Of a stretch of 64,000 bases of DNA, positions 25,142 through 47,954 are shown piece after piece. Where the stretch lies: the NCBI GenBank assembly GCA_043817155.1, contig JBDRHE010000008.1, positions 1,554 through 65,553 on the forward strand, written 5' to 3'. Each line of letters starts with the position of its first letter. Position 1 is the first letter of the stretch. A program made the position numbers and the translations under genes. The notes below the pieces were generated by a model. That model had not been told where the DNA came from. It searched no databases and saw only the letters and a list, made by a program, of their open reading frames with translations. This stretch comes from Candidatus Omnitrophota bacterium (lineage in GTDB: Bacteria > Omnitrophota > Gorgyraeia > JABMRN01 > RBG-13-46-9).

Positions 25142-26269
25142 ATGGAGAAGGTCGATATCACGATCATCGGCGCCGGCGTTATAGGCTTAGCGATCGCATA
25201 CGTACTTTCAGAGTTTAGTAAAGACATAACAGTGATAGAAAGGAACCGGTCATTTGGGCAGGAGACGAGTTCAAGAAATTCAGAGGTAATTCACTCAGGG
25301 ATCTACTATCCCAAAGGCACTCTTAAGGAAGAGACGTGTATAAGGGGACGAGAACTGCTTTATGAACTATGCTCAAAACATAATATTCCGCACAGGAGAC
25401 TCGGTAAGCTAATAGTGGCTTCCGGGGAGAAGGATATAGGCAAGCTCGAAGAGATATATAATAATGCATCGGAATGCGGGGTTAAGAACTTAAGGTTCCT
25501 GGACAAGGGCCAGATCAAAAGGCTGGAGCCGCGTATCGATGCAGAGAAGGCTCTCTTCTCCCCGGATACGGGCATAGTTGACACCCATAGCTTGATGCAG
25601 TTCTTTTTTGGCAGGGCAAAAGAACGTAATGTTAATTTTGCATTTTCTGTAGAAGCTGTAAAGATCAAAAGAGAGAACTCATTCTATGAGATCACCGTGC
25701 GCGAGCCGACAGGGGATAACTTCTCCTTTCAGAGCGGGTACGTTATAAATTCTGCAGGCCTCGTGTCTGACAAAATCGCTGAGCTTGCCGGGATAAATAT
25801 AGAAAAGAACAATTATAAGATCCATTATTGCAAAGGGACGTATTACAGGATAAGAGATCCTAAGAAGTTTTCCATAGAACACCTGATATATCCGCCGCCC
25901 AAAGAGACCGATCTCGGTATCCATGTTACACCGGATCTGGCCGGGGGCCTTAGGCTGGGGCCGGATGCCGAGTATGTTAAAGATATAGAATACAATGTAG
26001 AGGAAGCGGGTAGGGCAAAGTTCTTCGATTCCGTATCAAAACTCTTGGTTTCACTCGAGCAAGATGATCTGATACCTGATACGGCGGGTATCAGGCCAAA
26101 GCTCCAGGGAGTGGGCGAAGGATTTCGCGATTTTGTTATTAAGGATGAGGCGGATCTTGGGCTCCCACGGTTTATAGACCTGATCGGCATCGAATCACCA
26201 GGCCTTACAAGCTGCCTTGCCATAGCGGGCCTGGTAAAGGATCTTGTGAAAGGATCGATAAATGATTAA
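25142..26269 (+). CDS. FAD-dependent oxidoreductase (L-2-hydroxyglutarate oxidase/LhgO-like)
   Basis: N-terminal GxGxxG DITIIGAGVIGLAIA. Size and motifs fit the DAO-family LhgO group. Confidence 0.55.
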   Translation: MEKVDITIIGAGVIGLAIAYVLSEFSKDITVIERNRSFGQETSSRNSEVIHSGIYYPKGTLKEETCIRGRELLYELCSKHNIPHRRLGKLIVASGEKDIGKLEEIYNNASECGVKNLRFLDKGQIKRLEPRIDAEKALFSPDTGIVDTHSLMQFFFGRAKERNVNFAFSVEAVKIKRENSFYEITVREPTGDNFSFQSGYVINSAGLVSDKIAELAGINIEKNNYKIHYCKGTYYRIRDPKKFSIEHLIYPPPKETDLGIHVTPDLAGGLRLGPDAEYVKDIEYNVEEAGRAKFFDSVSKLLVSLEQDDLIPDTAGIRPKLQGVGEGFRDFVIKDEADLGLPRFIDLIGIESPGLTSCLAIAGLVKDLVKGSIND

Positions 26270-26741
26270 GCACTCTCTTAAGATCGGATTCAGCTTTGGC
26301 CTCACTTCCGGGATCATCACAACGCTCGGGCTCATGGTAGGCCTTAGCGCAGGTACCAACTCTAAACTGGCGGTTATCGGGGGCATACTGACCATAGCCA
26401 TAGCCGATGCATTTTCGGATGCGCTTGGCATTCATGTATCTGAAGAATCTGAGAATAAGCACACCCCAAAAGAGATATGGGTAGCGACCTTATCCACCTT
26501 CTTCTCGAAATTTATCATCGCTCTTACATTCCTTGTACCGGTCCTGGCATTCGATCTTACAAGCGCCATATTTATAAGCATTGTCTGGGGACTTGGCATG
26601 CTATGTTTCTTCAGCTATAAGATGGCTTTAGAACAGAAAGAGTCGCCGTGGCGGGTGGTGGGGGAACATGTCGCGATAGCAGCAGTGGTCATCATCTTGA
26701 CAAACTTGGCCGGAAACTGGATATCCGCTATATTAAGGTAA
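26262..26741 (+). CDS. Small integral membrane protein (possibly VIT1/CCC1-like)
   Basis: 4-5 TM helices. Weak similarity of GLMVGLSAGT...GGILTIAIADAFSD to VIT-family C-terminal domains. Confidence 0.35.
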   Translation: MIKHSLKIGFSFGLTSGIITTLGLMVGLSAGTNSKLAVIGGILTIAIADAFSDALGIHVSEESENKHTPKEIWVATLSTFFSKFIIALTFLVPVLAFDLTSAIFISIVWGLGMLCFFSYKMALEQKESPWRVVGEHVAIAAVVIILTNLAGNWISAILR

Positions 26742-26758
26742 AGAGCAAAATACGTAAT

Positions 26759-26943
26759 GGGTGAGTAAACAGGGGTAGTTTCCGTTTGTCATTCCCACAT
26801 CTTCCCACATGTCATCCCCGCGGAAGCGGGGATCCAGAGTGTCCTCGTCGAAAGTACATCCATGGATTCCCGCCTGCCTGCTTGCCGCAGGCGGGCAGGC
26901 TTGCGCGGGAATGACAGAGAAAAAACCCATGAAGACTCGCCCA
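26759..26943. repeat. MITE-like palindromic element, copy A
   Basis: GGGTGAGTAAAC ... GTCATCCCCGCGGAAGCGGGGATCC ... GGATTCCCGCCTGCCTGCTTGCCGCAGGCGGGCAGGCTTGCGCGGGAATGACA ... GAAGACTCGCCC. The termini GGGTGAGT and ACTCGCCC are inverted. Confidence 0.7.
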
Positions 26944-27130
26944 ACGCAAAAATATTCCGAAAAATATCCCAAAATAGCTTGACACCCAAGGCCCATTTTT
27001 GATATAATTCTGAAACTGTAAAAAATACAGGACAAAGGCGTCCTCGCGTGGGGACGCCTGTTTTATTCTATATCGTGTTTAGAAATTGAGCATAATATGA
27101 ATAAAGTATAAGCGAAGAAGGAGGGTAACG

Positions 27131-28723
27131 ATGAATCTACAAAGGCCTAACGCAAATGATGCAACGAGGACCACCAACCGCTCGAGGAGCGTTGTGCCGG
27201 GTTCAGGTATCTGTTCGCGCTGTATTGATGGCTGTAAGGGGAATTGCGAAGTTTTTAAAGCCTCTTTTAGGGGACGAGAAGTAATATATCCCGGTCCTTT
27301 CGGGGATGTGACCGCGGGCGGCGACAAGGATTACCCGGTCGATTATTCACACCTTAATATACAGGGCTATGCGCTTGGCGCAAAAGGTTTACCTGATGGT
27401 GTTGAGGCCGGGCCTGACACGACAAAGTTCCCTGATGTAGATACAGAGACCGAATACGGCTGGGACAAAAAAGTAAAGATGAAGGTCCCTATGTTTACCG
27501 GGGCCCTCGGCTCGACCGAGATAGCAAGAAAGAACTGGGAACACTTCGCAATAGGCGCCGCTATTTCAGGCGTTACCCTGGTTTGCGGAGAGAATGTATG
27601 CGGTATCGACCCGGGACTGGAACTGGATTCGAAGAAGAAGATAAAGAGCGCCCCGGACATGGACAGGCGCATTGAGGTGTACAAGAGATTTCACGAAGGT
27701 TACGGCGAGATCCTTGTGCAGATGAACGTTGAGGATACACGCTTGGGCGTAGCCGAGTATGTCATAAAGAAGCACAAGCTTGACACGATCGAACTTAAAT
27801 GGGGACAGGGCGCGAAGTGCATAGGCGGAGAGATCAAGGTAAACAGTCTCGAAAGAGCGCTCGAGCTTCAGAAGAGAGGTTATATTGTTACCCCTGATCC
27901 ATCTGTTAAATCAATCCAGGCAGCATTTAAAGAAGGCGCCATAAAGGAATTTGAGCGCCATTCCCGCCTCGGCTTTGTATCCGAAGAATCTTTCCTTGCG
28001 GAAGTCAAACGCTTAAGGGATCTCGGGTTCAAGCGCGTTACACTTAAGACGGGCGCATATTCGATGAGAGAACTTGCCATGGCCATTAAGTATAGCTCTC
28101 TGGCCAGGATAGATCTTCTCACAATCGACGGCGCACCGGGCGGAACAGGAATGAGCCCGTGGAGAATGATGGAAGAGTGGGGAATACCGACCTTCTATTT
28201 GCAATCTCTCGCCAACGAATTCTGCGATAAGCTAACTGCTAAGGGTATGCGTATACCTGATATTGCAATAGCCGGCGGGTTCTCATCCGAAGACCACATA
28301 TTCAAGGTACTTGCTATGGGCGCGCCTTATACAAAGGCTGTGTGTATGGGCAGGGCCCTTATGATACCGGGAATGGTCGGAAAGAATATGCAAGGATGGA
28401 TAGACTCAAAAGATCTTCCGAAGACCATTTCGGAATTTGGAAAGACCCCGGAAGAGATCTATGTCACATACGCTGAACTTAAAGAGAAATACGGCAAAGA
28501 CATCAAGCACATTCCTCTCGGAGCTATCGGTATATATACCTTCTCGCAGAAGATCAGGGTAGGACTCCAGCAGCTTATGGCAGGAAGCAGAAACTTCAAG
28601 ATCGACGCAATTGCTAGACAGGATGTTATGAGCCTGACTGAAGAGGCTGCCAAGGTCTCAGGGATCCCTTACATCATGGATGCTTACAGGGAAGAAGCTG
28701 AGATGGTCCTGGAAGGGAAATAG
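27131..28723 (+). CDS. FMN-binding glutamate-synthase-family protein (archaeal-type GltB domain-2 homolog) with an N-terminal Cys cluster
   Basis: CSRCIDGCKGNC (C-x2-C-x3-C-x3-C) at the N-terminus. GltS FMN-domain motifs GAPGGTGMSP ... IAIAGGFSSEDHIFKVLAMGAP. Confidence 0.65.
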   Translation: MNLQRPNANDATRTTNRSRSVVPGSGICSRCIDGCKGNCEVFKASFRGREVIYPGPFGDVTAGGDKDYPVDYSHLNIQGYALGAKGLPDGVEAGPDTTKFPDVDTETEYGWDKKVKMKVPMFTGALGSTEIARKNWEHFAIGAAISGVTLVCGENVCGIDPGLELDSKKKIKSAPDMDRRIEVYKRFHEGYGEILVQMNVEDTRLGVAEYVIKKHKLDTIELKWGQGAKCIGGEIKVNSLERALELQKRGYIVTPDPSVKSIQAAFKEGAIKEFERHSRLGFVSEESFLAEVKRLRDLGFKRVTLKTGAYSMRELAMAIKYSSLARIDLLTIDGAPGGTGMSPWRMMEEWGIPTFYLQSLANEFCDKLTAKGMRIPDIAIAGGFSSEDHIFKVLAMGAPYTKAVCMGRALMIPGMVGKNMQGWIDSKDLPKTISEFGKTPEEIYVTYAELKEKYGKDIKHIPLGAIGIYTFSQKIRVGLQQLMAGSRNFKIDAIARQDVMSLTEEAAKVSGIPYIMDAYREEAEMVLEGK

Positions 28724-28807
28724 ACTGTCGCTGTTAATGCCTAAAAATATATTGACTAAATAACACAAATTTGGTAAGCTGATCTCAACAAAGAAGTTTT
28801 AGGCAAT

Positions 28808-28845
28808 GATGCCCGCGTACGATGAATACGCGGGCATCTTATTTT
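28808..28845 (+). terminator. Rho-independent terminator
   Basis: GATGCCCGCGTA-CGATGAA-TACGCGGGCATC followed by TTATTTT. Confidence 0.7.
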
Positions 28846-29032
28846 GACGTTGTTGTCCTGCCGATTAGACAATGTAGTTGTCTCCCCAAAGACGGTTTTA
28901 ATTGTTGCTTTAATCTTATAACTTGCTATAATTGATTACACGGATTTTTTTGCATCCAAAGGGATGCAACTTAGATTACACAGATGGCGTTTCAATCTGT
29001 GTAATCAAAATGTTATAAGCTCCACAGAATCC

Positions 29033-29080
29033 CTGCCTGCCCGCCAAGACTTCACATTGGCAGGCGGGCCGGCAGGCAGG
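29033..29080. repeat. CCTGCCTGCC...GGCAGGCAGG palindromic repeat (an inverse copy of the one at 16396-16443), flanked by GATTACAC motifs
   Basis: Its reverse complement matches 16396-16443 nearly exactly. Confidence 0.8.
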
Positions 29081-29109
29081 TGTGTAATCATATAAAGAAA
29101 GGAAATATC

Positions 29110-30444
29110 ATGGAAAAAAATAAATTGACAAAAAAGGATATCTTAAAGATCGCAAAAGAGAAGGATATTAAATTCATAAGACTCTGGTTTGCCGATATCA
29201 CCGGTCAGATGAAGGGCTTCGCTATAACGCGCGAAGAGCTGGAGAACGCACTGGAAGATGGCATGGGTTTTGACGGCTCATCAATAAAAGGATTTGCGCG
29301 TATCGATGAATCCGATATGGTCGCCATGCCGGATACATCAACATTTATTATACTGCCATACAGGCCCAAAGAGAAGGCCGTTGCAGGGATGCTCTGTAAT
29401 GTGTTGAATCCTGACAGAACCCCGTATCAGGGAGATTCGCGCTATATACTAAAGAAGAACCTGGAGAGCGCAAAGAAGGAAGGATACACATTCAACATAG
29501 GTCCGGAACTGGAATTCTTTATATTTAAAAACGATAAGTCTACTGAGACCCTGGATGAGGGCGGGTACTTCGATATAACTACACTGGATGCTGCCAATGA
29601 AGTTAGACGCGAGATCATCCTGACTCTTGAACAGATGGGTATCCAGGTAGAGTATTCTCATCACGAGGTTGCACCCTCACAACATGAGATAGATCTCAGG
29701 TATAAGGAAGCGATGTCCATGGCCGACACAGTCATGCTCTACAGGATGGTGGTAAAAGAGATAGCTCAAAAGCACGGTTTTTACGCTACGTTTATGCCGA
29801 AGCCGATATTCGGCCAAAATGGAAGCGGCATGCATACGCACCAGTCGCTCTTTAAAGGGAGCAAGAACGTTTTCTTTAATCCTAAGGATAAGTACCACCT
29901 TTCAAAAGAAGGAAAGTCTTATATCGCGGGAATCTTGAAACACTCAAGAGAGATAACCCTGGTCTGCAACCAGTGGGTAAATTCCTACAAGAGACTGGTG
30001 CCGGGTTATGAAGCCCCTGTTTATATTTGCTGGGCAAGACGCAACAGGAGCGCGCTTGTAAGGGTCCCTATGTATCAACCCGGCAAAGAGAAGGCGACGA
30101 GAATAGAGTTTAGATCGCCGGATCCGTCCTGCAACCCGTATCTGGCATTTGCCACCATGCTTGCGGCCGGTCTTAAAGGTATGAAGGAGAATTACACTCT
30201 TGCGGAACCTATGGAGAGGGATGTATATCACTTAAGCCCGGATGATCTTAAGAAGCTAAAGGTCGGCTGCCTGCCCGGAAGCCTTATAGAAGCTATAGAG
30301 ATCGCAGAAGGTAGCTCGCTTCTAAAGGAAGCTCTGGGAGACCACATATTTAACAATCTCATCATGAGCAAGAAGATCGAGTGGGACGAATACAGGAAGA
30401 GAGTTCACGACTACGAGATCAAGACATACTTGCCAATATTATAA
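29110..30444 (+). CDS. glnA: Glutamine synthetase type I
   Basis: GS-I signatures throughout (FDGSSIKGF, the ATP-binding KPIFGQNGSGMHTHQS, NPYLAFA). 444 aa from MEKNKLTKKDI, with an RBS AAAGGAAAT. Confidence 0.85.
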   Translation: MEKNKLTKKDILKIAKEKDIKFIRLWFADITGQMKGFAITREELENALEDGMGFDGSSIKGFARIDESDMVAMPDTSTFIILPYRPKEKAVAGMLCNVLNPDRTPYQGDSRYILKKNLESAKKEGYTFNIGPELEFFIFKNDKSTETLDEGGYFDITTLDAANEVRREIILTLEQMGIQVEYSHHEVAPSQHEIDLRYKEAMSMADTVMLYRMVVKEIAQKHGFYATFMPKPIFGQNGSGMHTHQSLFKGSKNVFFNPKDKYHLSKEGKSYIAGILKHSREITLVCNQWVNSYKRLVPGYEAPVYICWARRNRSALVRVPMYQPGKEKATRIEFRSPDPSCNPYLAFATMLAAGLKGMKENYTLAEPMERDVYHLSPDDLKKLKVGCLPGSLIEAIEIAEGSSLLKEALGDHIFNNLIMSKKIEWDEYRKRVHDYEIKTYLPIL

Positions 30445-30595
30445 CAGCTTCTTAGCTTATTAGCTTTTTAGCTTCTTAGCGTTCTAGGATAACCCACAAG
30501 CCTATCCTAATAAGCTAGAACGTTAGTAAGCGAAAAAAGAATTTCCTAAAAAGGTAGTAAGCTAATTAGCCGGAACGTCAGTTAGCGAGCAATCC

Positions 30596-31300
30596 ATGGC
30601 ACCATCTTCATATAAAGCATATATCAAAACACTGAGCGAGATAAGTAGCGCGATAACGTCCGATCTCTATTTGGGGGATGTTCTCAAACTTATCGTTACA
30701 TTGACTGCAAATGTAATGAAGGCAAAGATATGCGCGCTCTGGCTGCTTGATAAGAAGAAGCGGGAGCTCAAGATACGCGCTACCCAGGCGATGAGCGAAG
30801 AGTATTTAAAGGAGAGAAGTATTAAGGTGGGGGAAGGGATAGTCGGCCTGGTTGCGGAAGAGAAGAAGCCTCTAATGATAAATAATGTACTGGACGATCC
30901 CAGATACAAGGAGAAGAGATTGGCAAGAAAAGAGGGTCTTGTCTCCATGCTCAGCGTTCCCATGATGGTTAAAAAAGAGGTTATAGGTGTAATAAATTGT
31001 TACACGACCACTCCATACAAATTTACGAAGAGCGATATAGATCTTCTGAGCGCGGTAGCAAATCAGGCCGCGGTCGCGATTGAAAATACCGAGCTTATGG
31101 TTAGAACTAAGGTTATCCAGGAAGAGCTGGATGCCAGAAAGAAGGTGGAGAAGGCCAAGGGGATACTAATGAAGGAACAGGGGCTTACCGAGGAAGAGGC
31201 GTATAACCTTATACGAACATCGAGCATGGATAGGCGCGTTCACATGAAGGACATAGCGGAAGCCATCATCCTCTCCCACGACGTGAAAAAAAATATATAA
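30596..31300 (+). CDS. GAF plus ANTAR domain RNA-binding antiterminator-type regulator
   Basis: The N-terminal GAF domain is about 150 aa. The C-terminal ANTAR domain is ELDARKKVEKAKGILMKEQGLTEEEAYNLIRTSSMDRRVHMKDIAEAII. The exact start is uncertain because there is no obvious RBS at 30596. Confidence 0.7.
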   Translation: MAPSSYKAYIKTLSEISSAITSDLYLGDVLKLIVTLTANVMKAKICALWLLDKKKRELKIRATQAMSEEYLKERSIKVGEGIVGLVAEEKKPLMINNVLDDPRYKEKRLARKEGLVSMLSVPMMVKKEVIGVINCYTTTPYKFTKSDIDLLSAVANQAAVAIENTELMVRTKVIQEELDARKKVEKAKGILMKEQGLTEEEAYNLIRTSSMDRRVHMKDIAEAIILSHDVKKNI

Positions 31301-31301
31301 T

Positions 31302-31462
31302 GGGTGAGTGAATAGGGATTCGTCCAAGTTGTCATCCCCGCGGAAGCGGGGATCCAGAGCGGACTCGCCAAGAGTGTATCTATGGATTCCCGCCTGCCTG
31401 CTTGCCGCAGGCGGGCAGGCTTGCGCGGGAATGACAAACAAAAAACCTATAAAGACTCACCT
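31302..31462. repeat. MITE-like palindromic element, copy B
   Basis: GGGTGAGTG at the 5' end and GACTCACCT at the 3' end (terminal inverted repeat). Its internal hairpins are identical to copy A. Confidence 0.7.
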
Positions 31463-31486
31463 AGCATAAGAATTTATAAAAAGATC

Positions 31487-31515
31487 TTGACAAAAACAGA
31501 GTTGCATGTTAAGAT
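31487..31515 (+). promoter_or_regulatory. Sigma70-like promoter for the porin-amt-PII operon
   Basis: TTGACA (31487-31492), a 17-bp spacer and TAAGAT (31510-31515). Downstream is a roughly 240-nt leader with hairpin-plus-U-tract structures. Confidence 0.5.
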
Positions 31516-31754
31516 CGTTGCGTTAGACAAAGAAGTTAATAAGGCATAGAAGCTCGGGTATAGATCCCGGGTTATTTTTTTGGCGAAGACGCCCTTTTTT
31601 AGGCAAAGATAGGCCTGGAAAAGGGCTTTTTTTTCAATGAGCGCATAATTTATGGAATGAAATGAACATAAATTAGAGCGCGAATTGAATCCGCCGAAGC
31701 TAAACACATATGTATTTAGCGAAGGCGGATCTAATTGAATAAGGGAGAATAACA

Positions 31755-32528
31755 ATGAGACTTACAAAGGACATAAATATAATTTTCTTATTAACATTTT
31801 TGGCTTTCACTTGCGTGTTTGCACAATATGGATTTTCAGCTGAGGAGGGGAAACCGGAATGGGCACCCGACATATCGGGCGCCATTACATTTGAGACTAA
31901 GTATGTATGGAGGGGGCAGACTCTGCTTGATGACTACGTTATGCAGCCGGAAGCCTCGATAGGAAAATACGGGTTCACATTCTCAGTGTGGGGAAATTAC
32001 GATACGGGGGTCGCTGATAAGCTTACGGAGTGGGATTATACATTTGACTATACCTTTAATATAGGGGATGCCAGGGAGGCGCTCAATATGGGTGATGATC
32101 TCCTTCATTTCGTGGACCCGTTAAGTGTATCTTCAGGGTATATCCTGTATACGTTCCCCCATCTTAGCGGTGAGGCATTCGAGTCCCATGAATTCTATTG
32201 GGGGCTTGCTTATGATATATTGTTACAGCCCTTCATAACAGTCTATTATGATTTCGATGACGGCAGAGGCGCCTATTTAGAATTCGGAGGAAGTCATACT
32301 TTCGAATTCCAGGATGGCATAACTGCGGATGTCGGAATAACTACGGGGTATAACGCAGGGCAATGGAGATACGACAAGAGCTTCAGCAATCTACTATTTT
32401 CAGGTGAGGTAAGCATTCCGTTCTTGAAGTATTTTAGCGTTTCACCAAATGTAAACTATTCACTTGCGCTTGATGATCAATATCATTCTGAGTTCTATGG
32501 CGGAGTGAAAGTGAGCGTCGAGTATTAA
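31755..32528 (+). CDS. Outer-membrane beta-barrel (porin-like) protein encoded immediately upstream of amt
   Basis: Signal peptide. Alternating amphipathic beta-strand pattern and a C-terminal aromatic-rich strand (GVKVSVEY). Confidence 0.5.
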   Translation: MRLTKDINIIFLLTFLAFTCVFAQYGFSAEEGKPEWAPDISGAITFETKYVWRGQTLLDDYVMQPEASIGKYGFTFSVWGNYDTGVADKLTEWDYTFDYTFNIGDAREALNMGDDLLHFVDPLSVSSGYILYTFPHLSGEAFESHEFYWGLAYDILLQPFITVYYDFDDGRGAYLEFGGSHTFEFQDGITADVGITTGYNAGQWRYDKSFSNLLFSGEVSIPFLKYFSVSPNVNYSLALDDQYHSEFYGGVKVSVEY

Positions 32529-32545
32529 GAAGAAAGGAGCAAATC

Positions 32546-33808
32546 ATGTCAGAGAATACAATTTATGCATCATTAGCCGGAGTCGACACGTTGTGGGTTC
32601 TCATAGCCGCATTCCTTGTCTTCTTTATGCAGGCGGGATTCGGCATGGTTGAAGCCGGTTTCATAAGAGCCAAAAACACGTGCAACATATTAACCAAAAA
32701 CTTCCTGGACTTCTGTATGGCAACACTCGGTTTCTTCATATTTGGCTATGCCATAATGTTTGGATCAGGGAATGGTTTTATGGGATTTAAGGGATGGTTT
32801 CTGACCGGAGCCGAATCCGGGGCGGATATACCCCTCTTTGCTTTCTGGTTATTCCAGGCAGCCTTTTGTGGCGCAGCTGCGACCATTGTAGCCGGGGGTA
32901 TGGCTGAAAGGATGAAGTTCTCAGCTTACCTTATATACTCATTCATAATATCCGCTTTTATCTATCCTATAGTAGGTCACTGGATATGGGGCGGGGGTTG
33001 GCTTGCAAACCTTAATTTTGCGGATTTTGCAGGGTCGACTGTTGTTCATATGGTAGGCGGATTTGCCGCTTTGATAGGAACCATTGTCCTGAAACCGAGG
33101 ATCGGAAAATACAATATAGATGGGTCGGCCAATGCCATAGCCGGGCACTCTATACCGCTTGCGTCCCTAGGCGTATTTATATTATGGTTTGGTTGGTTTG
33201 GGTTCAATCCGGGATCAACGCTCAGTGTCGGGAATGGGAGCTTGATAGCAAGGGTCGCGATCAATACCAATCTGGCTGCAGCAGCCGGAGGAATATTGGC
33301 AATGATCACTGTGTGGCGGATGTTTGGTAAACCTGATCTATCGATGGCAATGAATGGCGCTTTAGCCGGGCTTGTAGCTGTTACTGCACCATGTGCGTAT
33401 ATTGAGCCATGGGCAGCTATAATTATTGGCGCCATTGGTGGCGTAATAGTTGTGCTGGGCGTGGTCTTACTTGATAAGTTGAAGATAGATGATCCTGTTG
33501 GAGCAGTCCCTGTCCATGGATTAAACGGTATATGGGGAACGCTCTCCATTGGACTATTCGGCCAGAAAGCATTAGGAGTAGCGACTGATGGATTATTTTA
33601 TGGAGGGGGTCTAAAACAACTGGGAATTCAGGCATTAGGAGTGAGTGCGGTTGTTGTATTCATTCTACTTGCTATGGGCATTGTCTTTGTTGCGATAGAC
33701 AAGATTATAGGTCTTAGAGTAACAAGGGACGAAGAGCTTAAAGGTCTGGACATAGGCGAGCACGGTATGGAATCTTATTCGGGATTCCAGATTTTTACTA
33801 CGGAATAG
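32546..33808 (+). CDS. amt: Ammonium transporter (Amt family)
   Basis: Amt signature segments (DFAGSTVVHMVGGFAALIGTIVLKPRIG, the twin-His region). 11 TM. Confidence 0.85.
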   Translation: MSENTIYASLAGVDTLWVLIAAFLVFFMQAGFGMVEAGFIRAKNTCNILTKNFLDFCMATLGFFIFGYAIMFGSGNGFMGFKGWFLTGAESGADIPLFAFWLFQAAFCGAAATIVAGGMAERMKFSAYLIYSFIISAFIYPIVGHWIWGGGWLANLNFADFAGSTVVHMVGGFAALIGTIVLKPRIGKYNIDGSANAIAGHSIPLASLGVFILWFGWFGFNPGSTLSVGNGSLIARVAINTNLAAAAGGILAMITVWRMFGKPDLSMAMNGALAGLVAVTAPCAYIEPWAAIIIGAIGGVIVVLGVVLLDKLKIDDPVGAVPVHGLNGIWGTLSIGLFGQKALGVATDGLFYGGGLKQLGIQALGVSAVVVFILLAMGIVFVAIDKIIGLRVTRDEELKGLDIGEHGMESYSGFQIFTTE

Positions 33809-33968
33809 TTCGACAGATGGGAGAACTACTATGGTTAAGCTACGAAGGACGATGGACGAAAGACGAAGGACGATTCGTAAAATAATGCTTGACGGATGAT
33901 AGCAAAAATAAGACAGCTTAGGTTAGTTATCTCTGATTTCTAAACTTTAAAAAGAAAGGAACTATAAA

Positions 33969-34310
33969 ATGAAACTGATAATAGCCATGATACAGCCGCA
34001 TAAGTTACCCGATGTAAAGAAAGCCCTTTATGATGCAGAAGTACACAAGATGACGGTTACCAACGCTCTAGGTTGTGGACAACAGAAAGGCTATACCGAA
34101 ACATATAGAGGCGTAATCCACGATATCAATCTGCTAAAGAAGGTAAAGCTTGAGATCGCGGTAAACGAGGATTATGTCGAACCCACTATCGACGCCATTA
34201 TAAAAGGAGCAAGAACCGGTAAAATCGGGGATGGTAAGATATTTGTGCTGGACTTACCCGAATGCATAAGAATACGAACGGGTGAAAAAGGCAACAAGGC
34301 GATAGGGTAG
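33969..34310 (+). CDS. glnK: Nitrogen regulatory protein P-II
   Basis: 113 aa. The T-loop region TETYRG and the conserved GDGKIFV. It lies 160 bp downstream of amt. Confidence 0.85.
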
Positions 34311-34324
34311 TTTTTAGAAAGATT

Positions 34325-34486
34325 ACGTCTTGTTCTCCCCGCACCTTCCCATATGTCATCTTCGCGAAAGCGGGGATCCAGAGGGGACTCGTAGAGGGTC
34401 CATCCATGGATTCCCGCCTGCCTGCTTGCCGCAGGCGGGCAGGCTTTCGCGGGAATGACAGAGAGAGAACCCATGAAGACTCGATC
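34325..34486. repeat. MITE-like palindromic element, copy C (5' end degenerate)
   Basis: GTCATCTTCGCGAAAGCGGGGATCC ... GGATTCCCGCCTGCCTGCTTGCCGCAGGCGGGCAGGCTTTCGCGGGAATGACA ... GAAGACTCGAT. Confidence 0.7.
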
Positions 34487-34551
34487 ATTACATAAGATTA
34501 GAAAACTTGCTATCAATGCAAAAAGGTTTAAGATATAATTAAGGCATCAAT

Positions 34552-37500
34552 ATGATACATAGTCACTTACCCAAAAAACAGGGCCTCTATGACCCGCGAT
34601 TCGAAAAGGATTCGTGTGGCGTGGGATTTGTTTGCGATATTAAAGGCATTAAAACCAATAATATCGTTAAGCAGGGTCTTAAGGTGCTCGAAAGATTGGC
34701 CCATCGGGGAGCGGTCGGAGCCGATCCGAAGACAGGTGATGGCGCCGGGATCCTTATACAGATACCGCATGAATTCTTTTCACACGCATGTAAAGAGCAG
34801 TCAATTACCCTGGGCCCTTCCGGGAGCTATGGAACCGGACTGGTCTTCTTGCCGCAAGATGAGAAGCAGCGCCAGATCTGTAAAGATGTATTCTCAAAGG
34901 TTGTAAAGGATGAAGGACAGAAGCTTCTCGGTTGGCGTACCGTGCCTGTTGATAGCTCTACCGTAGGAAAGGTGGCAAGAAACACCCAGCCTGCTATTGA
35001 ACAGATATTTATTTCTAAGAGCGATCACATAAAATCAGAACTTGATTTTGAAAGAAGACTTTATATTATCAGAAAGAGAACCGAGAATACCCTAAGAGAT
35101 GCCAAGCTAAAACAAGGATCATTCTTCTATATAACTAATATATCATGTCGTACATTTTCCTATAAAGGGCTTCTGATGCCGCATCAGCTGGGCGAATTCT
35201 TTCTCGACCTAAAGGATGAGCGCATAAAAAGCTCTTTATGCCTTGTGCATTCCCGCTACAGTACAAATACATTCCCCACATGGGATCTCTCCCAACCATT
35301 TAGATTTTTAGCTCATAACGGGGAGATAAATACGCTGCACGGTAATATTAACTGGATGCGCGCCAGGGAGGGGTTGCTAAAGAGCCGATTGTTTGGCAAA
35401 GACATAGAAAAACTGAAACCTGTAATTGTGCCAGGGGGAAGTGATTCTGCGACCATAGATAATGTATTTGAGCTTCTTGTCCTATCGGGTAGGTCGCTTG
35501 AGCACGCTATGACTATGCTTGTGCCGTCTGCATGGGGGAAATACACATTAATTGATGATAATCTCAAGTCTTTCTTCAGATATCACGCCTGTTTTATGGA
35601 GCCTTGGGACGGGCCTGCAGCCATTGCTTTTACGGATGGAACCCGCATAGGCGCTGTTCTTGACAGGAATGGCTTACGGCCGGCCCGTTATATTATAACG
35701 AAGGATGGACTTGTTGCGCTGGCTTCAGAGGTGGGGGTACTTGATATAAAGCCTGAAGATATCAGGACTTCAGGCAGGCTTGAGCCCGGGAAGATGCTCT
35801 TTATTGATACCGAGCGGGGGCGCGTCGTTGATGATAAGGAGATCAAAGAGAGTATAGCAACCCATGCCCCATATGGCAAGTGGAACAAAAAATACATGGT
35901 GGAACTCGATAAGCTATCCGCTCCGCGAATAAAAAAGAAGAAAGAGATGCTTGGTATCCTGGCGGCGCAAAAGGCATTTGGTTATACCAGAGAAGATATC
36001 AACGTTATCCTAAAGCCTATGGCGGTATCCGGTAAGGAGCCTATCGGATCTATGGGAAACGATACGCCGCTTGCAGTTCTCTCAAAGAGGCCGAACCTGC
36101 TTTATAACTATTTTAAACAGCTCTTTGCGCAGGTTACAAATCCGGCCATAGACTCTATTAGAGAAGACTTTGTGATGAGCATAAGGAGTTTTATAGGCAC
36201 GCAGCGAAATATGCTTGATGAGACCGAAGAACATTGCATTAAGCTGGATGTGAAGGAACCCGTTCTTTCTGACGACGACGTTGCCAAGATCCGCAGCTTG
36301 AAAAGAAAAGGATTCAGAGCAAAGACAATATCGATGCTCTATGATGTGTCGGGTAAGAGGGCCTTTCTAAAGGCCCTGGATAGGATATGCCGGGATGCTG
36401 AAACTGCTGTCAAGAAGGGGTTTTCATTTATTATCTTGAGCGATAAAGGTGTTAACAGAAAGCAGGCGGCGCTGCCGGCACTTCTTGCTACCGGCTGCCT
36501 GCATCATCATCTGGTGAGAATGGCCGTGCGAACTCAAGTCGGCATCATTATTGAGAGCGCAGAACCCCGTGAAGTATTTCACTTTGCGCTTCTCTTTGGC
36601 TACGGGGCCGATTGTATTAACCCGTATCTTGCGTATAGCACGCTGGGGCAGCTTATCAAAGAGAAAGATCTGAAGCTACCGCTTAAAGCAGCGGTCAAGA
36701 ATTACAGGAAGGCTGTTCGTGGCGGAATCCTGAAGATAATGTCGAAGATGGGTATATCTACGATACGAAGCTACAAAGGCGCCCAGATATTTGAAGCCCT
36801 CGGCCTTAGCGAAGAGGTAATTGAGCGTTGTTTCGCAGGGACCAATTCCCGTATAGACGGGATCGGATTTAATATTATCGCCGAAGAGACAAGCGCGCGG
36901 CACCTGGAAGCTTTTGCGGATAAAGAGGGTGGCGCGGAGTTTCTTGCCACGGGCGGGCTCTATCAGTGGAAGAGGGACGGGGAATACCACCTGTGGAATC
37001 CCGAAAGCATTGCGTGTCTCCAGGACGCGACGCGAAAGAACGATTACAACGCATACAAGAGATTTGCTAATATGATAAATGACCAATCGAGTAATCCGAC
37101 AACGCTGAGAAGCCTTCTTAGGTTTCGCAAGGCCGAACCTATAGCCATAAACGAGGTTGAATCCGTAGAATATATAGTGAAGCGCTTTGCCACCGGCGCG
37201 ATGAGTTTCGGATCGATCAGCGGATCGATGCATGAGACACTGGCAATAGCGATGAACAGATTGGGTGCGAAATCGAATACGGGAGAAGGGGGAGAAGACC
37301 CTGCAAGATTCCAGCCACTCCCAAATGGCGATTCTGCCAGAAGCGCCATAAAGCAGGTTGCTTCGGGCAGGTTCGGTGTGACTACAAACTATCTGATAAA
37401 TGCAGATGAACTTCAGATAAAGATCGCTCAAGGGGCGAAACCCGGGGAAGGCGGGCAATTGCCGGGACACAAAGTGAGCGCGATCATTGCCAAAACAAGA

Positions 37501-39084
37501 TATACAACGCCCGGCGTAACACTTATATCGCCTCCGCCGCACCACGATATCTATTCGATCGAGGATCTTGCGCAGCTGATATTCGATCTAAAGAACGTGA
37601 ATCCGCGCGCCAGGATAAGTGTGAAACTGGTTTCTGAGATCGGGGTCGGCACTATTGCCGCAGGTGTGGCAAAAGGCCATGCCGACATGATACTTATTTC
37701 AGGTGGAGACGGGGGAACAGGGGCGTCTCCGCTCAGTTCAATAAAGCATGCGGGGGTGCCCTGGGAGCTCGGTCTCTCGGAGACTCACCAGACGCTCGTT
37801 TTGAATGATTTAAGAAGCAGGGTGCGGATCCAGACGGATGGCCAGATGCGAACAGGCAGGGATGTCGCCATCGCTGCTCTACTCGGCGCTGAAGAGTACG
37901 GTTTCTGTACCGCAGCGCTCATAGTTTCCGGATGTGTTATGCTCAGGCACTGCCATCTAAATAACTGTTCTCTTGGCATAGCGACGCAGGACGATATCCT
38001 GGAGAGGAGATTTCGCGGGAATCCTGACTACGTTGTAAACTTCTTCCGCTTTATAGCGCAGGATCTCAGGGAGATAATGGCGAGTCTTGGTTTAAGAGAT
38101 CTTGACTCCATGATAGGTAGAACGGATTTTCTGCAAGTCGACAGATCAATTATACCTGTCAGATCGAAAGGTATAGACTATTCGAAGATACTTTATAAAC
38201 CCGATGTGCCGAACTCATTCGGCACGCGCTATTTAGTTAGCCAGGATCATTCCATTGAGAAGATCCTGGATAGAAGGCTTATAGAGCTTTCGAAGGACGC
38301 GCTTCTTAAAGGCATTCCAGTAAAGATAGAGCTCGATATCAATAATACGAATAGAACTACAGGAGCTATGCTGAGCGGGGAGGTTTGCAGGCTTCACGGC
38401 GAAAGAGCGCTGGCTGAGGATACTATCCATTGCAAATTTACCGGTGTTGCCGGACAGAGTTTCGGTGCGTGGCTAGCCAGCGGAATAACTTTTGAGCTGG
38501 AAGGCATGGCCAACGATTATATCGGCAAAGGGATCTCCGGAGGAAAGATCATTGTTTATCCGGGTAAAACATCTACCTATAAACCTGAAGAGAACGCGAT
38601 AATAGGTAATACAACTTTTTATGGCGCTATAAGCGGAGAGGCGTATATAAGAGGCTTTGCCGGGGAGAGATTCTGTATAAGGAATTCCGGACTTAGCGCT
38701 GTTGTGGAAGGCGTCGGGGATCACGGCTGCGAATATATGACAGGCGGAAGGGTCGTAGTCTTAGGAAGAACGGGCAGGAACTTTGCTGCCGGCATGTCAG
38801 GCGGTATTGCGTACGTATATGACGCAGACTCGAATTTTAAATCCAGATGCAATACCGACATGATCGTTCTGGAGAAACTTTCTAAGGACGACATAGAGAC
38901 GGTATGCAATCTGCTTCGTAATCACTACAAATATACAGAAAGCCGGTATGCAAAGGAGATCTTGGATAACATGGATATGTATCTGAAGAAATTTATTAAA
39001 GTCATGCCCATAGAATATAAACGCATCCTTGAAGGGGCGAAGGTTGATGAGAAGCTGGGTGCGGGAGAATATACTGAAGGATGA
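34552..39084 (+). CDS. gltB: Glutamate synthase large subunit
   Basis: 1510 aa. The N-terminal amidotransferase Cys (CGVGFV), the FMN domain and the C-terminal GXXG-rich beta-helix. Confidence 0.9.
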   Translation: MIHSHLPKKQGLYDPRFEKDSCGVGFVCDIKGIKTNNIVKQGLKVLERLAHRGAVGADPKTGDGAGILIQIPHEFFSHACKEQSITLGPSGSYGTGLVFLPQDEKQRQICKDVFSKVVKDEGQKLLGWRTVPVDSSTVGKVARNTQPAIEQIFISKSDHIKSELDFERRLYIIRKRTENTLRDAKLKQGSFFYITNISCRTFSYKGLLMPHQLGEFFLDLKDERIKSSLCLVHSRYSTNTFPTWDLSQPFRFLAHNGEINTLHGNINWMRAREGLLKSRLFGKDIEKLKPVIVPGGSDSATIDNVFELLVLSGRSLEHAMTMLVPSAWGKYTLIDDNLKSFFRYHACFMEPWDGPAAIAFTDGTRIGAVLDRNGLRPARYIITKDGLVALASEVGVLDIKPEDIRTSGRLEPGKMLFIDTERGRVVDDKEIKESIATHAPYGKWNKKYMVELDKLSAPRIKKKKEMLGILAAQKAFGYTREDINVILKPMAVSGKEPIGSMGNDTPLAVLSKRPNLLYNYFKQLFAQVTNPAIDSIREDFVMSIRSFIGTQRNMLDETEEHCIKLDVKEPVLSDDDVAKIRSLKRKGFRAKTISMLYDVSGKRAFLKALDRICRDAETAVKKGFSFIILSDKGVNRKQAALPALLATGCLHHHLVRMAVRTQVGIIIESAEPREVFHFALLFGYGADCINPYLAYSTLGQLIKEKDLKLPLKAAVKNYRKAVRGGILKIMSKMGISTIRSYKGAQIFEALGLSEEVIERCFAGTNSRIDGIGFNIIAEETSARHLEAFADKEGGAEFLATGGLYQWKRDGEYHLWNPESIACLQDATRKNDYNAYKRFANMINDQSSNPTTLRSLLRFRKAEPIAINEVESVEYIVKRFATGAMSFGSISGSMHETLAIAMNRLGAKSNTGEGGEDPARFQPLPNGDSARSAIKQVASGRFGVTTNYLINADELQIKIAQGAKPGEGGQLPGHKVSAIIAKTRYTTPGVTLISPPPHHDIYSIEDLAQLIFDLKNVNPRARISVKLVSEIGVGTIAAGVAKGHADMILISGGDGGTGASPLSSIKHAGVPWELGLSETHQTLVLNDLRSRVRIQTDGQMRTGRDVAIAALLGAEEYGFCTAALIVSGCVMLRHCHLNNCSLGIATQDDILERRFRGNPDYVVNFFRFIAQDLREIMASLGLRDLDSMIGRTDFLQVDRSIIPVRSKGIDYSKILYKPDVPNSFGTRYLVSQDHSIEKILDRRLIELSKDALLKGIPVKIELDINNTNRTTGAMLSGEVCRLHGERALAEDTIHCKFTGVAGQSFGAWLASGITFELEGMANDYIGKGISGGKIIVYPGKTSTYKPEENAIIGNTTFYGAISGEAYIRGFAGERFCIRNSGLSAVVEGVGDHGCEYMTGGRVVVLGRTGRNFAAGMSGGIAYVYDADSNFKSRCNTDMIVLEKLSKDDIETVCNLLRNHYKYTESRYAKEILDNMDMYLKKFIKVMPIEYKRILEGAKVDEKLGAGEYTEG

Positions 39085-39484
39085 CACGTAAATCGAATCC
39101 GGCATATGCCCGTCTTCGTCCGCCGCCTACGGCGGCGCGGCTACGACGCGGCAAACTTCGCCTATAGCGGCCTACCGGGACGTAGCTCTGAAGGATTTAC
39201 TTTTAGTCGGCATTCTTCAGAGCGAAGTCTGGTGTGGGGGAGTATACGGAAGGCTAACTCGAATAGTACGTTACGATGGATGACGGACGAAGGACGACGG
39301 ACGATAGCGATTCCACTCCCGGCCTGGAATAAAGAGGTTTACCTAGACAGGCCGGGAGTGGAATCTGCTCAACTTACGACGGATGACGGATGATGGATGA
39401 TGGACGAAAGACGATTCGCCTTGTCTTTGCGAGGTACCGTAGAGATGAGCTAGCATTGTTTCCCTGGCTGCTTGGAGTTAAGAG

Positions 39485-43126: not shown

Positions 43127-47954
<4,828 letters not shown>

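Follow-up and report, generated by a model that had tools for sequence, protein, structure and literature searches.

A GAF-ANTAR protein as a probable antiterminator of nitrogen-assimilation genes in an uncultured Omnitrophota bacterium

The GAF-ANTAR protein encoded among the nitrogen genes of this bacterium is, in our judgement, likely to be a one-component RNA-binding antiterminator of a nitrogen-assimilation regulon. Its targets would be glnA (probably along with the regulator's own gene), a porin-amt(-PII) operon, a small gltB-like gene and carAB-pyrG. In the mechanism that we propose, each of these operons would be transcribed from a near-consensus sigma70-type promoter and would meet an intrinsic terminator inside the first 30-110 nt of its transcript. 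An ANTAR element with the hexaloop consensus C-[A/G]AAGNN-G would act just 5' of each terminator, overlapping its 5' arm, and for glnA and amt another hexaloop hairpin would stand 3-5 nt ahead of the terminator-proximal one. The ANTAR domains of the active dimeric regulator would bind these weak hairpins and keep them in place, the stem of the terminator would be blocked and RNA polymerase would read through; the amt leader would present two such checkpoints in series, T1 and then T2. The N-terminal GAF domain would set the activity state through a long helix leading to the ANTAR bundle. To judge by its nearest relatives, those of EI-Ntr and NifA, this domain most likely reads the cellular nitrogen status, with 2-oxoglutarate activating and/or glutamine inactivating the regulator.

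Gene order and the GAF-ANTAR protein

The window, the 64-kb stretch of genome that was analysed, carries on its + strand the gene order glnA, GAF-ANTAR, porin-like barrel, amt, PII and gltBD, as an earlier note made from the sequence alone had read it; Pfam bears out this gene content, and the term "porin" holds at the level of the fold. The cluster is preceded by the gene of a small GltB-like protein (27131-28723; Glu_synthase domain, PF01645, 2.3e-15), a predicted target. It continues with glnA for a type I glutamine synthetase (29080-30444; Pfam 1e-130, TIGR00653), whose true start is probably the ATG at 29111, and with the regulator gene (30596-31300, 234 aa; Pfam). There follow the barrel gene (31755-32528), amt for an ammonium transporter (32546-33808; Pfam 4.9e-131), a PII gene of the GlnK/GlnB type (33969-34310; Pfam 7e-28, NCBIfam PRK10858), gltB (34552-39084; Pfam) and gltD (39485-40963; Pfam). 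Farther along lies carA, the carbamoyl-phosphate synthase small chain (41826-42917; Pfam), with carB and pyrG behind it. The 257-aa barrel ORF gave no match in Pfam or NCBIfam and belongs to a family of only 48 proteins that lacks a Pfam model. AF2 models it (pLDDT 91) as an outer-membrane beta-barrel, with Tsx, NanC, OmpG and PcoB as the best Foldseek matches in the PDB, so "porin-like" is valid at the fold level.

In the regulator, Pfam places a GAF domain at residues 28-163 (85.9 bits) and an ANTAR domain at residues 175-225 (70.4 bits against a cut-off of 27.3). The AF2 model (pLDDT 83) shows the GAF domain, a continuous 51-residue helix (145-195) and an ANTAR helical bundle extending to residue 233. 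Nine of the 11 residues with which EutV contacts its RNA (contacts from PMC8934654) are identical here (R181, K182, K186, K188, E199, Y203, R207, M211 and R214), the other two being replaced (N173 by D212, R177 by H216). We infer that the protein binds the leader RNAs described below.

The best sequence and fold matches of the GAF domain are with that of EI-Ntr (3ci6 and 3trc, TM 0.85; PRK11061, 7e-20), and it also matches NifA (TIGR01817, 1.5e-17). The EI-Ntr domain binds glutamine (PMC4848567) and that of NifA binds 2-oxoglutarate (PMC12998190). Since these are the nearest relatives, either metabolite is a plausible ligand here, by analogy; the identity to them is only 21-24%, so the ligand is not transferable with confidence. 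Perhaps the regulator works as proposed, with the signal reaching the GAF domain through protein-protein contact with PII instead of a small metabolite. In Azospirillum and Herbaspirillum the GAF domain of NifA works through PII contact, and an interaction of this domain with GlnB is documented (PMC3854208); our GAF domain resembles that of NifA, and a PII gene sits inside the regulated operon. However, the nearest solved GAF domains are those of EI-Ntr, a direct glutamine binder, and in many related loci the regulator stands beside glutamine synthetase (GS) or gltB-like genes without a PII gene nearby, and we regard such a contact as unlikely.

Hexaloops and terminators in the leader sequences

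The best sigma70-type site between 28600 and 34700 is the porin-amt promoter at 31487-31515 (TTGACA, 17 nt, TGtTAAGAT with an extended -10 TG; 10 of 12 positions), precisely where the earlier note had put it; promoter-like sites overall show no enrichment in this interval (15 found, 12.5 expected). Downstream, at 31526-31554, is a canonical ANTAR dual hexaloop with A1, G4 and C-G closing pairs, consisting of hairpin P1 (GAC-AAAGAA-GUU, 31526-31537), a 5-nt linker and hairpin P2 (GGC-AUAGAA-GCU, 31543-31554). Both the motif scanner and the covariance model introduced below pick it out (28.6 bits, E = 2.1e-5). It lies just 5' of the hairpins that the note had listed and is none of them; the note had named the dual hexaloop as the motif to look for.

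The listed hairpins are themselves all present, to within about 3 nt. The first, a CUCGGG stem with a U-run at 31551-31580, is T1 (31551-31581), a terminator that the terminator scan also recovers and whose 8-bp stem (31551-31573, arms AGCUCGGG/CCCGGGUU) is followed by U7 (31575-31581). The 5' arm of T1 overlaps the 3' arm of P2, and terminator and dual hexaloop are mutually exclusive (-11.8 kcal/mol for T1 against -1.9 for P1 plus P2). Together with the synteny reported below, this alternative pairing supports the note's reading of the leader as an antitermination switch. A second tandem unit (31582-31634), found by the terminator and single-hexaloop scans, begins with the hairpin GGCGAAGACGCC at 31582-31593. 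The note had placed it near 31585 as GGCG-AAGA-CGCC; it is better read as a GGC-GAAGAC-GCC hexaloop, since relatives carry A at loop position 1, and this A cannot close a tetraloop. Five related loci (L020, L026, L037, L054 and L012) also carry the unit; among them loop position 1 is A or G, and G4 never varies. As a dual motif the unit scores only 9.4 bits. The 3' arm of its hairpin is the base of T2, a 14-bp terminator (31591-31626) ending in U8 (31627-31634; -23.7 kcal/mol against -8.6 for the alternative fold). What had been described as a third G/C stem plus U8 is correct as to the U8, but the stem is the 3' half of T2. Two hairpins of great stability lie between T2 and the RBS, at 31634-31688 and 31689-31730 (-40.6 kcal/mol, z = -7.0), neither followed by a U-tract; the second is the long hairpin that the note had seen before the RBS, and the first is additional. 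The leader as a whole folds at -85.5 kcal/mol (z = -7.4 against shuffles), and terminator-like sites are enriched in the region (12 against 4.7 +/- 2.4 expected).

The glnA leader repeats this arrangement. Its promoter (28752-28780; TTGACT, 17 nt, TGgTAAGCT, again with an extended -10) has the layout of the amt promoter, and a canonical dual hexaloop (28787-28813; 29.1 bits, E = 1.6e-5) joins P1 (AAC-AAAGAA-GUU, 28787-28798) by a 3-nt linker to P2 (GGC-AAUGAU-GCC, 28802-28813). The intrinsic terminator (28808-28846), picked up by the terminator scan, has a 12-bp stem (28808-28838) followed by UUAUUUUG, and its 5' arm includes the loop and 3' arm of P2 (-22.6 kcal/mol against -3.1 for P1 plus P2). 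With a separate copy of the switch ahead of glnA, the regulator gene is probably within an operon under its own control.

Two further leaders carry a single good hexaloop each, and the single-hexaloop scan detects both. Upstream of the small gltB-like gene, a sigma70-type promoter (26979-27008; TTGACA, TGaTATAAT) directly precedes a variant unit at 27016-27064 (15 bits, E = 0.059). Here a P1-like hairpin without G4 (CUGUA-AAAAA-UACAG, 27016-27030) is followed by a canonical hexaloop (GGAC-AAAGGC-GUCC, 27030-27043) that overlaps a terminator (27036-27059, then GUUUUAUU; -19.2 kcal/mol against -5.6 for the antiterminator). The carA leader (41559-41665; 12.9-14.3 bits, E = 0.1-0.2) has a promoter at 41559-41587 (TTGACT, 17 nt, GATAAT) and one canonical hexaloop (AAAAC-AAAGGC-GUUUU, 41621-41636) overlapping a 13-bp terminator (41628-41659, then CUUUUUAUU; -17.3 kcal/mol against -1.3 for the hairpin). 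The motif upstream of carA is a canonical dual one in a related locus (L044). Across the leaders the terminators exceed the antiterminator hairpins in stability by 10-20 kcal/mol; no other fold of the protein-free RNA comes near the terminator in stability, and premature termination would thus be the default.

The leaders contain no sigma54 promoter, and an Rfam search of the region returned no riboswitch. That the ANTAR protein might instead repress translation through hairpins at the start site, as with mycobacterial ANTAR RNAs, is an idea to which we give hardly any credence. Such a mode does exist in actinobacteria, as two sources describe (bioRxiv 10.1101/660928, PMC8164766), but the present motifs lie some 90-300 nt 5' of the start codons (about 200 for the first amt module, 300 for glnA and 90 for the small gltB-like gene) and each overlaps a stem and U-tract, not an RBS.

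Motif statistics and conservation in related genomes

Scanning both strands of the 64 kb for pairs of ANNGNN hexaloop hairpins with an overlapping terminator yields exactly two sites, those of the glnA and amt leaders. Three of 20 shuffles reach this raw count of two, so it is the cross-genome model and the context that carry the case. The covariance model (R2) was seeded with 38 sites from other genomes only, the sequences of the window being left out. It gives the glnA and amt sites E values of about 2e-5; the next best score in the 64 kb is 15 bits, and the gltB-like, carA and second amt units reach only 9-15 bits.

We have also compared 80 related loci (1.09 Mb) from Omnitrophota and Thermodesulfobacteriota. 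The model matches with E <= 1, 61 in number, all share the strand of the regulator, and all 42 with E < 0.01 fall outside labelled genes; a recognised nitrogen gene follows 32 of the latter and a small sigma-like gene six, gltB-like genes being the commonest target (17 of 42). Fourteen of the 16 non-seed matches have an overlapping terminator, a feature that the model itself does not contain. Both phyla keep the hexaloop sequence with its C-G closing pairs, and stem positions covary (UA/AU/GU/CG; GC/AU). Paired cells amount to 91.7% against 26-52% in slid controls, a figure inflated by the selection of seeds with a pairing rule. It could be argued that the hairpins and U-runs are ordinary terminators, insulators or repeat-derived palindromes without regulated readthrough, and their hexaloops a coincidence; the genome is indeed rich in palindromic repeats, and the shuffles occasionally match the dual-motif count. 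We find this very improbable: the structures stand 3' of strong promoters and 5' of genes, in the sense orientation (as do 61 of 61 model matches), their hexaloops, closing pairs and stem covariation are kept in two phyla, and constitutive terminators at such places would silence essential assimilation genes.

The synteny that the note had proposed to check is likewise widespread. In 61 of the 80 loci, a gene for GS, GSIII, GOGAT, GDH, Amt, PII, CarA or PyrG lies within 700 nt of the regulator gene, and the strongest motif matches in relatives are directly 3' of the GAF-ANTAR gene, within 30-400 nt. These observations bear on whether the motifs, although real ANTAR targets, might be bound by another ANTAR regulator from outside the window, for example a REC-ANTAR protein such as GnfR or NasT, the GAF-ANTAR protein having other targets. 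The window is 64 kb of a genome that could encode another ANTAR protein elsewhere, the REC-ANTAR protein GnfR does this job in Geobacter (PMC2995071), and ANTAR domains are thought to be unspecialised for particular RNAs (PMC7496416). Against this, the GAF-ANTAR gene accompanies the target operons in two phyla, with the strongest motifs immediately behind it; its ANTAR domain is the only one in the window, and the 80 loci contain a single second one (L034, a same-type paralogue). We thus consider an outside regulator decidedly unlikely. With the GAF-ANTAR protein as regulator, the direction of the response is uncertain, as motifs also precede GDH genes in relatives, and GDH is usually not induced under nitrogen limitation.

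Relationship to known ANTAR systems

The RNA element is that of EutV/EutW, which controls the Enterococcus faecalis eut operon (Ramesh 2012, PMC3369931; Walshe 2022, PMC8934654). Both systems have two short A1/G4 hexaloop hairpins with conserved closing pairs, the second overlapping the 5' arm of an intrinsic terminator, and the proteins share nine of 11 ANTAR contact residues and a long helix before the ANTAR bundle. The input differs, being a GAF domain without a kinase partner here and a phosphorylated receiver domain in EutV/EutW, as do the targets (ammonium assimilation rather than ethanolamine utilisation). Unlike the EutV/EutW elements, the GAF-ANTAR-linked family often has G at loop position 1, and its linkers are 3-6 nt long as against 5-12 nt. 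A 3-nt linker engineered into eutP impaired EutV-dependent induction (PMC3369931); the glnA linker is of this same length, which counts against our proposal.

Control of nitrogen genes by ANTAR proteins differs from the NtrBC and GlnR paradigms, as the earlier note had said, but it is not new. In Geobacter sulfurreducens, GnfK/GnfR relieves premature termination in the glnK and amtB leaders and antiterminates nif genes (Ueki and Lovley 2010, PMC2995071). GnfR is, however, a two-component response regulator under an RpoN/GnfLM cascade that serves mainly nif genes, whereas here we have a one-component GAF protein and sigma70-type promoters, without sigma54 sites or nif genes. A 2012 study had already described ANTAR motifs 5' of genes for PII, Amt, GS and GOGAT (PMC3369931). 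Desulfotomaculum acetoxidans has 13 predicted sites 5' of amt, PII and GOGAT genes, and in Alkaliphilus metalliredigens a motif precedes the glutamine synthetase Amet_3386, itself followed by the ANTAR protein Amet_3385 (PMC3369931, Table S2). Those regulons have the same logic and gene classes as ours, including a GS gene and then an ANTAR gene behind the motif. They belong to Firmicutes and other cultured phyla, with regulator architectures not tied to GAF domains, and the same paper explicitly called GAF-ANTAR proteins uncharacterised (PMC3369931). NasR of Klebsiella oxytoca (NIT-ANTAR), whose ANTAR domain is homologous to ours (4akk, E = 2e-7), and NasS/NasT are likewise one-component or protein-partnered antiterminators of nitrogen-acquisition genes. 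Their signal is nitrate or nitrite and their targets are nas genes alone, in contrast to the GAF sensor and the central GS/GOGAT/Amt/PII targets found here. The GAF domains of EI-Ntr (PtsP) and NifA, the best matches to the sensor, report nitrogen or carbon status through glutamine or 2-oxoglutarate, with a phosphotransferase or an AAA+ transcriptional activator as the output in place of an RNA-binding domain.

The ANTAR mechanism is textbook knowledge and its use on nitrogen genes has been known since 2010-2012; the present system is a new member of this kind, and its type of sensor, the GAF domain of a GAF-ANTAR protein, is so far uncharacterised. In this uncultured Omnitrophota bacterium, the genes for ammonium uptake and for glutamine and glutamate synthesis appear to be switched on by a GAF-ANTAR protein that overrides the terminators in their leaders.

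Gene order and promoters of the nitrogen cluster

The gene order that the earlier note had read from this cluster (glnA, GAF-ANTAR, porin, amt, PII, gltBD) is confirmed by Pfam, with all of the genes on the + strand. A small GltB-like gene (27131-28723) is followed by glnA (start at 29080 or 29111, end at 30444), the 234-aa GAF-ANTAR regulator (30596-31300), the gene of a 257-aa porin-like protein without a family match (31755-32528), amt (32546-33808), PII (33969-34310), gltB (34552-39084) and gltD (39485-40963); carA-carB-pyrG (41826-47954) lies further along. An NCBI entry named 'GAF domain-containing protein' matches the regulator at 100% identity.

Near-consensus sigma70 promoters open all four of the regulated leaders, a few nucleotides 5' of the first hairpin. 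The best promoter-like site of the region is that of porin-amt (TTGACA-17-TGtTAAGAT, 31487-31515), exactly where a sigma70-like promoter had been proposed, and glnA has TTGACT-17-TGgTAAGCT at 28752-28780. A search for sigma54 -24/-12 promoters (TGGCAC-N5-TTGC, 2 mismatches) gave 18 matches against 22 expected, with none in the leaders of the gltB-like gene, glnA, amt, gltB or carA. Nor did Rfam, applied to 26000-42000 at a permissive E <= 1, reveal any riboswitch or known leader, the glutamine riboswitches included; it returned only sub-threshold chance matches to eukaryotic miRNA and lncRNA models and to the Pseudomonas sRNA P11. The sigma70 promoters of the four leaders, placed as they are, fit a control exerted at the termination step and not at initiation. 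More strong palindromes, for example GAUUACACAGAU...AUCUGUGUAAUC and the CCUGCCUGCC...GGCAGGCAGG type, lie after the glnA and carA terminators (28850-29080 and 41690-41800), and a long inverted repeat at 41700-41790 produced spurious miRNA matches in Rfam.

The 151-nt spacer between glnA and the regulator (30445-30595) contains no promoter-like site; its fold is one long, imperfect hairpin (-43.9 kcal/mol, z = -3.2) without a U-tract, and it is packed with TTAGC-type repeats and may be a processing or stability element. It is plausible that glnA and the regulator are co-transcribed and that the regulator is therefore under positive autoregulation.

The region also carries a repeat of about 155-190 nt that looks MITE- or REP-like: inverted repeats (GTCATCCCCGCG...CGCGGGAATGAC) form its two ends, and its palindromic core is rich in GC. 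It occurs in full three times, always with the same orientation (26746-26945, 31290-31461 and 34320-34483), each copy ending 25-45 nt 5' of the predicted -35 of the gltB-like, porin-amt or gltB promoter. Only fragments occur in the rest of the window (60006-60032) and in L008 and L045, two of the 80 loci (L001-L080) fetched from other genomes that encode relatives of the regulator. The placement of the repeat before three nitrogen operons could be either chance or regulatory.

Dual-hexaloop motifs in the glnA and amt leaders

The dual hexaloop typical of ANTAR targets, which the earlier note suggested should be sought in the amt leader, is present there at 31526-31554, between the promoter and a first intrinsic terminator, T1. 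Its first hairpin (P1, GAC-AAAGAA-GUU, 31526-31537) is separated by a 5-nt linker from the second (P2, GGC-AUAGAA-GCU, 31543-31554), the 3' arm of which is included in the 5' arm of T1 (stem 31551-31573, then U7). The glnA leader has the same layout of promoter, P1, linker and P2 overlapping a terminator: P1 is AAC-AAAGAA-GUU (28787-28798), P2 is GGC-AAUGAU-GCC (28802-28813) after a 3-nt linker, and the terminator has a 12-bp stem (28808-28838) and then a U-tract. P2 and terminator share 6 nt in glnA and 4 nt in amt. In its published definition, a dual hexaloop has stems of no fewer than 3 bp, A1 and G4 in its six-nucleotide loops, and a P2 that overlaps a terminator (PMC3369931); the glnA site (28787-28813) and the amt site both satisfy it, with A1 and G4 in both loops of each (AAAGAA/AAUGAU and AAAGAA/AUAGAA, respectively). 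Across 38 sites from other genomes G4 is invariant and position 1 is A or G, and the linkers of related sites are mostly 3-6 nt. Natural eut sites have linkers of 5-12 nt, and a 3-nt linker lowered induction in eutP (PMC3369931).

All of the structures that the earlier note listed in the amt leader exist, but their roles differ from those described. The first hairpin (31551-31573 plus U7) is T1 itself, and the third 'stem plus U8' is the 3' half of a second, 14-bp terminator, T2 (31591-31626 plus U8). Between T2 and the porin-like RBS stand two hairpins of very high stability (-40.6 kcal/mol, z = -7), at 31634-31688 and 31689-31730; neither is followed by a U-tract, and L020 has retained them only in part.

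Folded without protein, every leader has the terminator as its minimum-energy structure, at -11.8 to -23.7 kcal/mol, compared with only -1.3 to -8.6 kcal/mol for the antiterminator hairpins. Thus the glnA terminator has -22.6 kcal/mol against -3.1 for P1 plus P2, and amt T1 has -11.8 against -1.9. Since the terminator is so much the more stable structure, the default state would be termination, as in the ANTAR model.

A scanner for dual hexaloops with terminators found exactly two sites in the 64 kb (both strands), namely the glnA and amt leaders. This count was equalled in 3 of 20 Markov shuffles and is not significant by itself, which is why a covariance model was built from other genomes only.

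Support from other genomes

The relatives of the regulator in the 80 loci are 70-84% identical to it in Omnitrophota and 63-70% in Thermodesulfobacteriota/Syntrophia. Applied to these loci, the scanner gave 44 sites, in 31 of which both loops are closed by C-G pairs and the loop sequences are almost identical. The stems of the aligned sites covary: pair 3:14 is UA, AU, GU or CG, and pair 23:32 is GC or AU. Changes on both sides are seen in 5 of the 8 pairs, with 39 double-change cells against 16.4 in shuffles; pairing stands at 91.7% versus 26-52% with slid partners, in seeds that were themselves selected by a pairing rule.

A first covariance model, made from these sites, had 61 matches at E <= 1 in 1.09 Mb, every one of them on the strand of the regulator gene, and all 42 of those with E < 0.01 were outside labelled genes. 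Although the model itself contains no terminator, 14 of 16 non-seed matches overlap one. The genes 3' of the 42 matches are gltB-like (17), small sigma-like (6), porin-amt (4), GDH (3), glnA (2) and gltB (2), and also PII, carA, pyrG and the regulator itself. The key unbiased result is that of model R2, built from the 38 sites of other genomes without any sequence of the window: it scores the glnA leader at 29.1 bits and the amt leader at 28.6 bits (E ~2e-5), and its next match at 15 bits. A model match at 4435-4474, inside an ORF, was dismissed as chance. In the window, the PII and gltB leaders yielded no motif; L017 and L054 have one before gltB.

The small sigma70-like proteins of several Omnitrophota (174-195 aa) give weak Pfam matches to regions 2 and 4. 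Their genes (L001:6608-7153, L020:1999-2547, L027:2729-3253, L034:10943-11467 and L040:7891-8478; also in L005, L012 and L028) stand directly 3' of an ANTAR motif and terminator, often ahead of amt-PII, an arrangement that suggests a regulatory cascade. The cluster in the window has no sigma70-like gene of this type.

Single-hexaloop variants

Three further units of the window have only one good hexaloop hairpin each, which overlaps a terminator, and so fall short of a dual motif. These are GGAC-AAAGGC-GUCC in the gltB-like leader (27030-27043; terminator 27036-27059), where P1 has an A5 pentaloop; AAAAC-AAAGGC-GUUUU in the carA leader (41621-41636; terminator 41628-41659); and GGC-GAAGAC-GCC, the second unit of the amt leader (31582-31593; terminator T2). 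Individually they are weak, at 9-15 bits with the covariance model. A scan for C-[A/G]ANGNN-G hairpins overlapping a terminator gave 4 sites against 0.57 expected: these three units and glnA P2, all on the + strand and in the leaders of genes that assimilate nitrogen or depend on glutamine (glnA, gltB-like, porin-amt, carA). The amt P2 (31543-31554, loop AUAGAA) lies outside this pattern.

A reading of the second amt unit as a canonical dual motif was rejected, the loop of its distal hairpin being 8 nt and the score 7.7-9.4 bits. The earlier note had read 31582-31593 as a tetraloop, GGCG-AAGA-CGCC; this is less likely than the hexaloop, because L020, L026 and L012 carry an A at loop position 1 that cannot pair with C6. 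The unit is kept in L020, L026, L037, L054 and L012, with a loop that begins with A or G and an invariant G4; the homologous hairpin of L037 serves as P2 in a canonical dual motif. Model matches outside the seed commonly have G at loop position 1. The relatives show the second amt unit to be a P2-type hexaloop with a long terminator. Tandem units are also frequent 5' of gltB-like genes in Thermodesulfobacteriota loci. In view of the structure of EutV with RNA, which redefined the minimal ANTAR site as a single hexaloop (PMC8934654), the weak variant units may still function.

Synteny of the regulator

Association of the regulator with nitrogen genes in other genomes, on which the earlier note had made its proposal depend, is widespread: a recognisable nitrogen gene occurs in 65 of the 80 loci, and in 61 it lies within 700 nt of the regulator. 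A same-strand glnA directly 5' of the regulator is found in 12 loci, with overlapping stop and start codons in some, a divergent adjoining glnA in 14 and a type III GS directly 5' in 16. On the 3' side there is a gltB-like gene in 11 loci and a porin or amt in 6; in others PyrG, GDH or CarA adjoins the regulator. A 505-aa DUF1846 protein, for which we know of no link to nitrogen metabolism, recurrently adjoins the regulator in several loci of Omnitrophota (L014:10735-12252, L016, L019, L025, L030, L031 and L043).

The regulator and the porin-like protein

The ANTAR domain of the regulator (PF03861, residues 175-225) scores 70.4 bits against a Pfam cut-off of 27.3 and is the only one in the window. 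We compared it with the hexaloop contacts of EutV (R142, K143, K147, K149, E160, Y164, R168, M172, N173, R175 and R177; PMC8934654). Nine of the 11 are kept, as R181, K182, K186, K188, E199, Y203, R207, M211 and R214, and among these are the G4-stacking tyrosine (Y203), E199 and the 'plug' methionine (M211); all nine are invariant across 35 homologues. The two that differ are N173, replaced by D212 as in Rv1626 and NasR, and R177, replaced by H216. The AF2 model (pLDDT 83) predicts a GAF fold, then a helix that runs unbroken over 145-195, and ANTAR helices at 199-213 and 217-233; the long helix ahead of this helical bundle may mediate dimerisation.

By both sequence and fold, the nearest relatives of the GAF domain are those of EI-Ntr/PtsP and NifA (PRK11061, 7.3e-20; TIGR01817, 1.5e-17). 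By phmmer it matches 3ci6 (4.5e-15) and 3trc (4.2e-13), which are also the top Foldseek matches (TM 0.85-0.86, rmsd 2.6 A). The EI-Ntr domain binds glutamine (PMC4848567) and that of NifA 2-oxoglutarate (PMC12998190), so that glutamine or 2-oxoglutarate is a reasonable guess at the ligand, by analogy at 21-24% GAF identity. An exhaustive search of protein representatives was dominated at the top by giant multi-GAF proteins and thus gives no usable estimate of family size. Thermodesulfobacteriota loci also contain the gene of a GAF protein that stands alone, has about 159 aa and no ANTAR, and is 60-66% identical to the GAF of the regulator (L055:4287-4763, L065:12810-13286, L068:17574-18050 and L070:17305-17781; also L071, L074, L076, L077 and L080). 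Its gene is usually 3' of the gltB-like gene, and the protein could be a partner or a competitor of the regulator.

The word 'porin' in the earlier note is upheld at the level of the fold. The 257-aa protein is predicted to have an N-terminal helix (3-26), taken as a signal peptide, and then a closed antiparallel outer-membrane beta-barrel of 12-14 strands (AF2, pLDDT 91), the best PDB matches of which are Tsx, NanC, OmpG and PcoB (Foldseek, E 5e-7 to 2e-5). No Pfam or NCBIfam model covers this family of only 48 clusters, nearly all from Omnitrophota. Its gene sits immediately 5' of amt, and the modelled barrel could serve as an outer-membrane channel related to ammonium or nitrogen.

Relation to known systems

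The observation of a GAF-ANTAR gene embedded in a nitrogen cluster with a multi-hairpin leader is thus confirmed, and its interpretation as antitermination, with the anatomy corrected and with RNA binding and readthrough as predictions, is supported. The predicted RNA mechanism is the canonical ANTAR one of EutV, NasR and AmiR. ANTAR control of nitrogen genes is already known, and the present case leaves that picture unchanged: in Geobacter, termination ahead of glnK, amtB and nif genes is relieved by GnfR (PMC2995071), and a covariance survey of 2012 located motifs ahead of PII, amt, GS and GOGAT genes across many bacteria, among them a GS gene with an ANTAR gene next behind it (PMC3369931). 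The interesting part is the sensor, since no characterised GAF-ANTAR has yet been described. The 2012 paper states plainly that, of GAF-ANTAR and PAS-ANTAR proteins, not one specific example had been characterised (PMC3369931); a 2020 paper (PMC7496416) and a 2025 review mention the architecture and name no characterised GAF-ANTAR; and our full-text search of the literature, on GAF-ANTAR as well as on ANTAR in Omnitrophota, brought up no characterised case.

A much wider reading, which we offer tentatively and consider rather doubtful, is that in Omnitrophota and a Syntrophia-like branch of Thermodesulfobacteriota nitrogen control is almost wholly post-initiation. A single GAF-ANTAR protein would sense 2-oxoglutarate or glutamine directly and gate constitutive sigma70 promoters (GS, GOGAT, GDH, Amt/PII, CarAB/PyrG and the small sigma factor) through serial hexaloop/terminator checkpoints, with the stand-alone GAF paralogues possibly modulating it. 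If this were true, a GAF-ANTAR would replace NtrBC, GlnR, NtcA or NrpR as master regulator, and it would be the first characterised protein of its architecture, no RNA-binding regulator before it having been shown to read central nitrogen status directly.

As to the antitermination reading itself, the tandem and single-hexaloop units are natural test cases for the single-hexaloop minimal site proposed in 2022. Since the regulator keeps 63-84% identity in two phyla and lies there among genes for GS, GOGAT and Amt, one biochemical study would generalise widely. GAF-ANTAR, an abundant architecture, gains a concrete regulon, an RNA site and a testable ligand hypothesis, and the uncultured phylum Omnitrophota a first view of how its nitrogen assimilation may be regulated.
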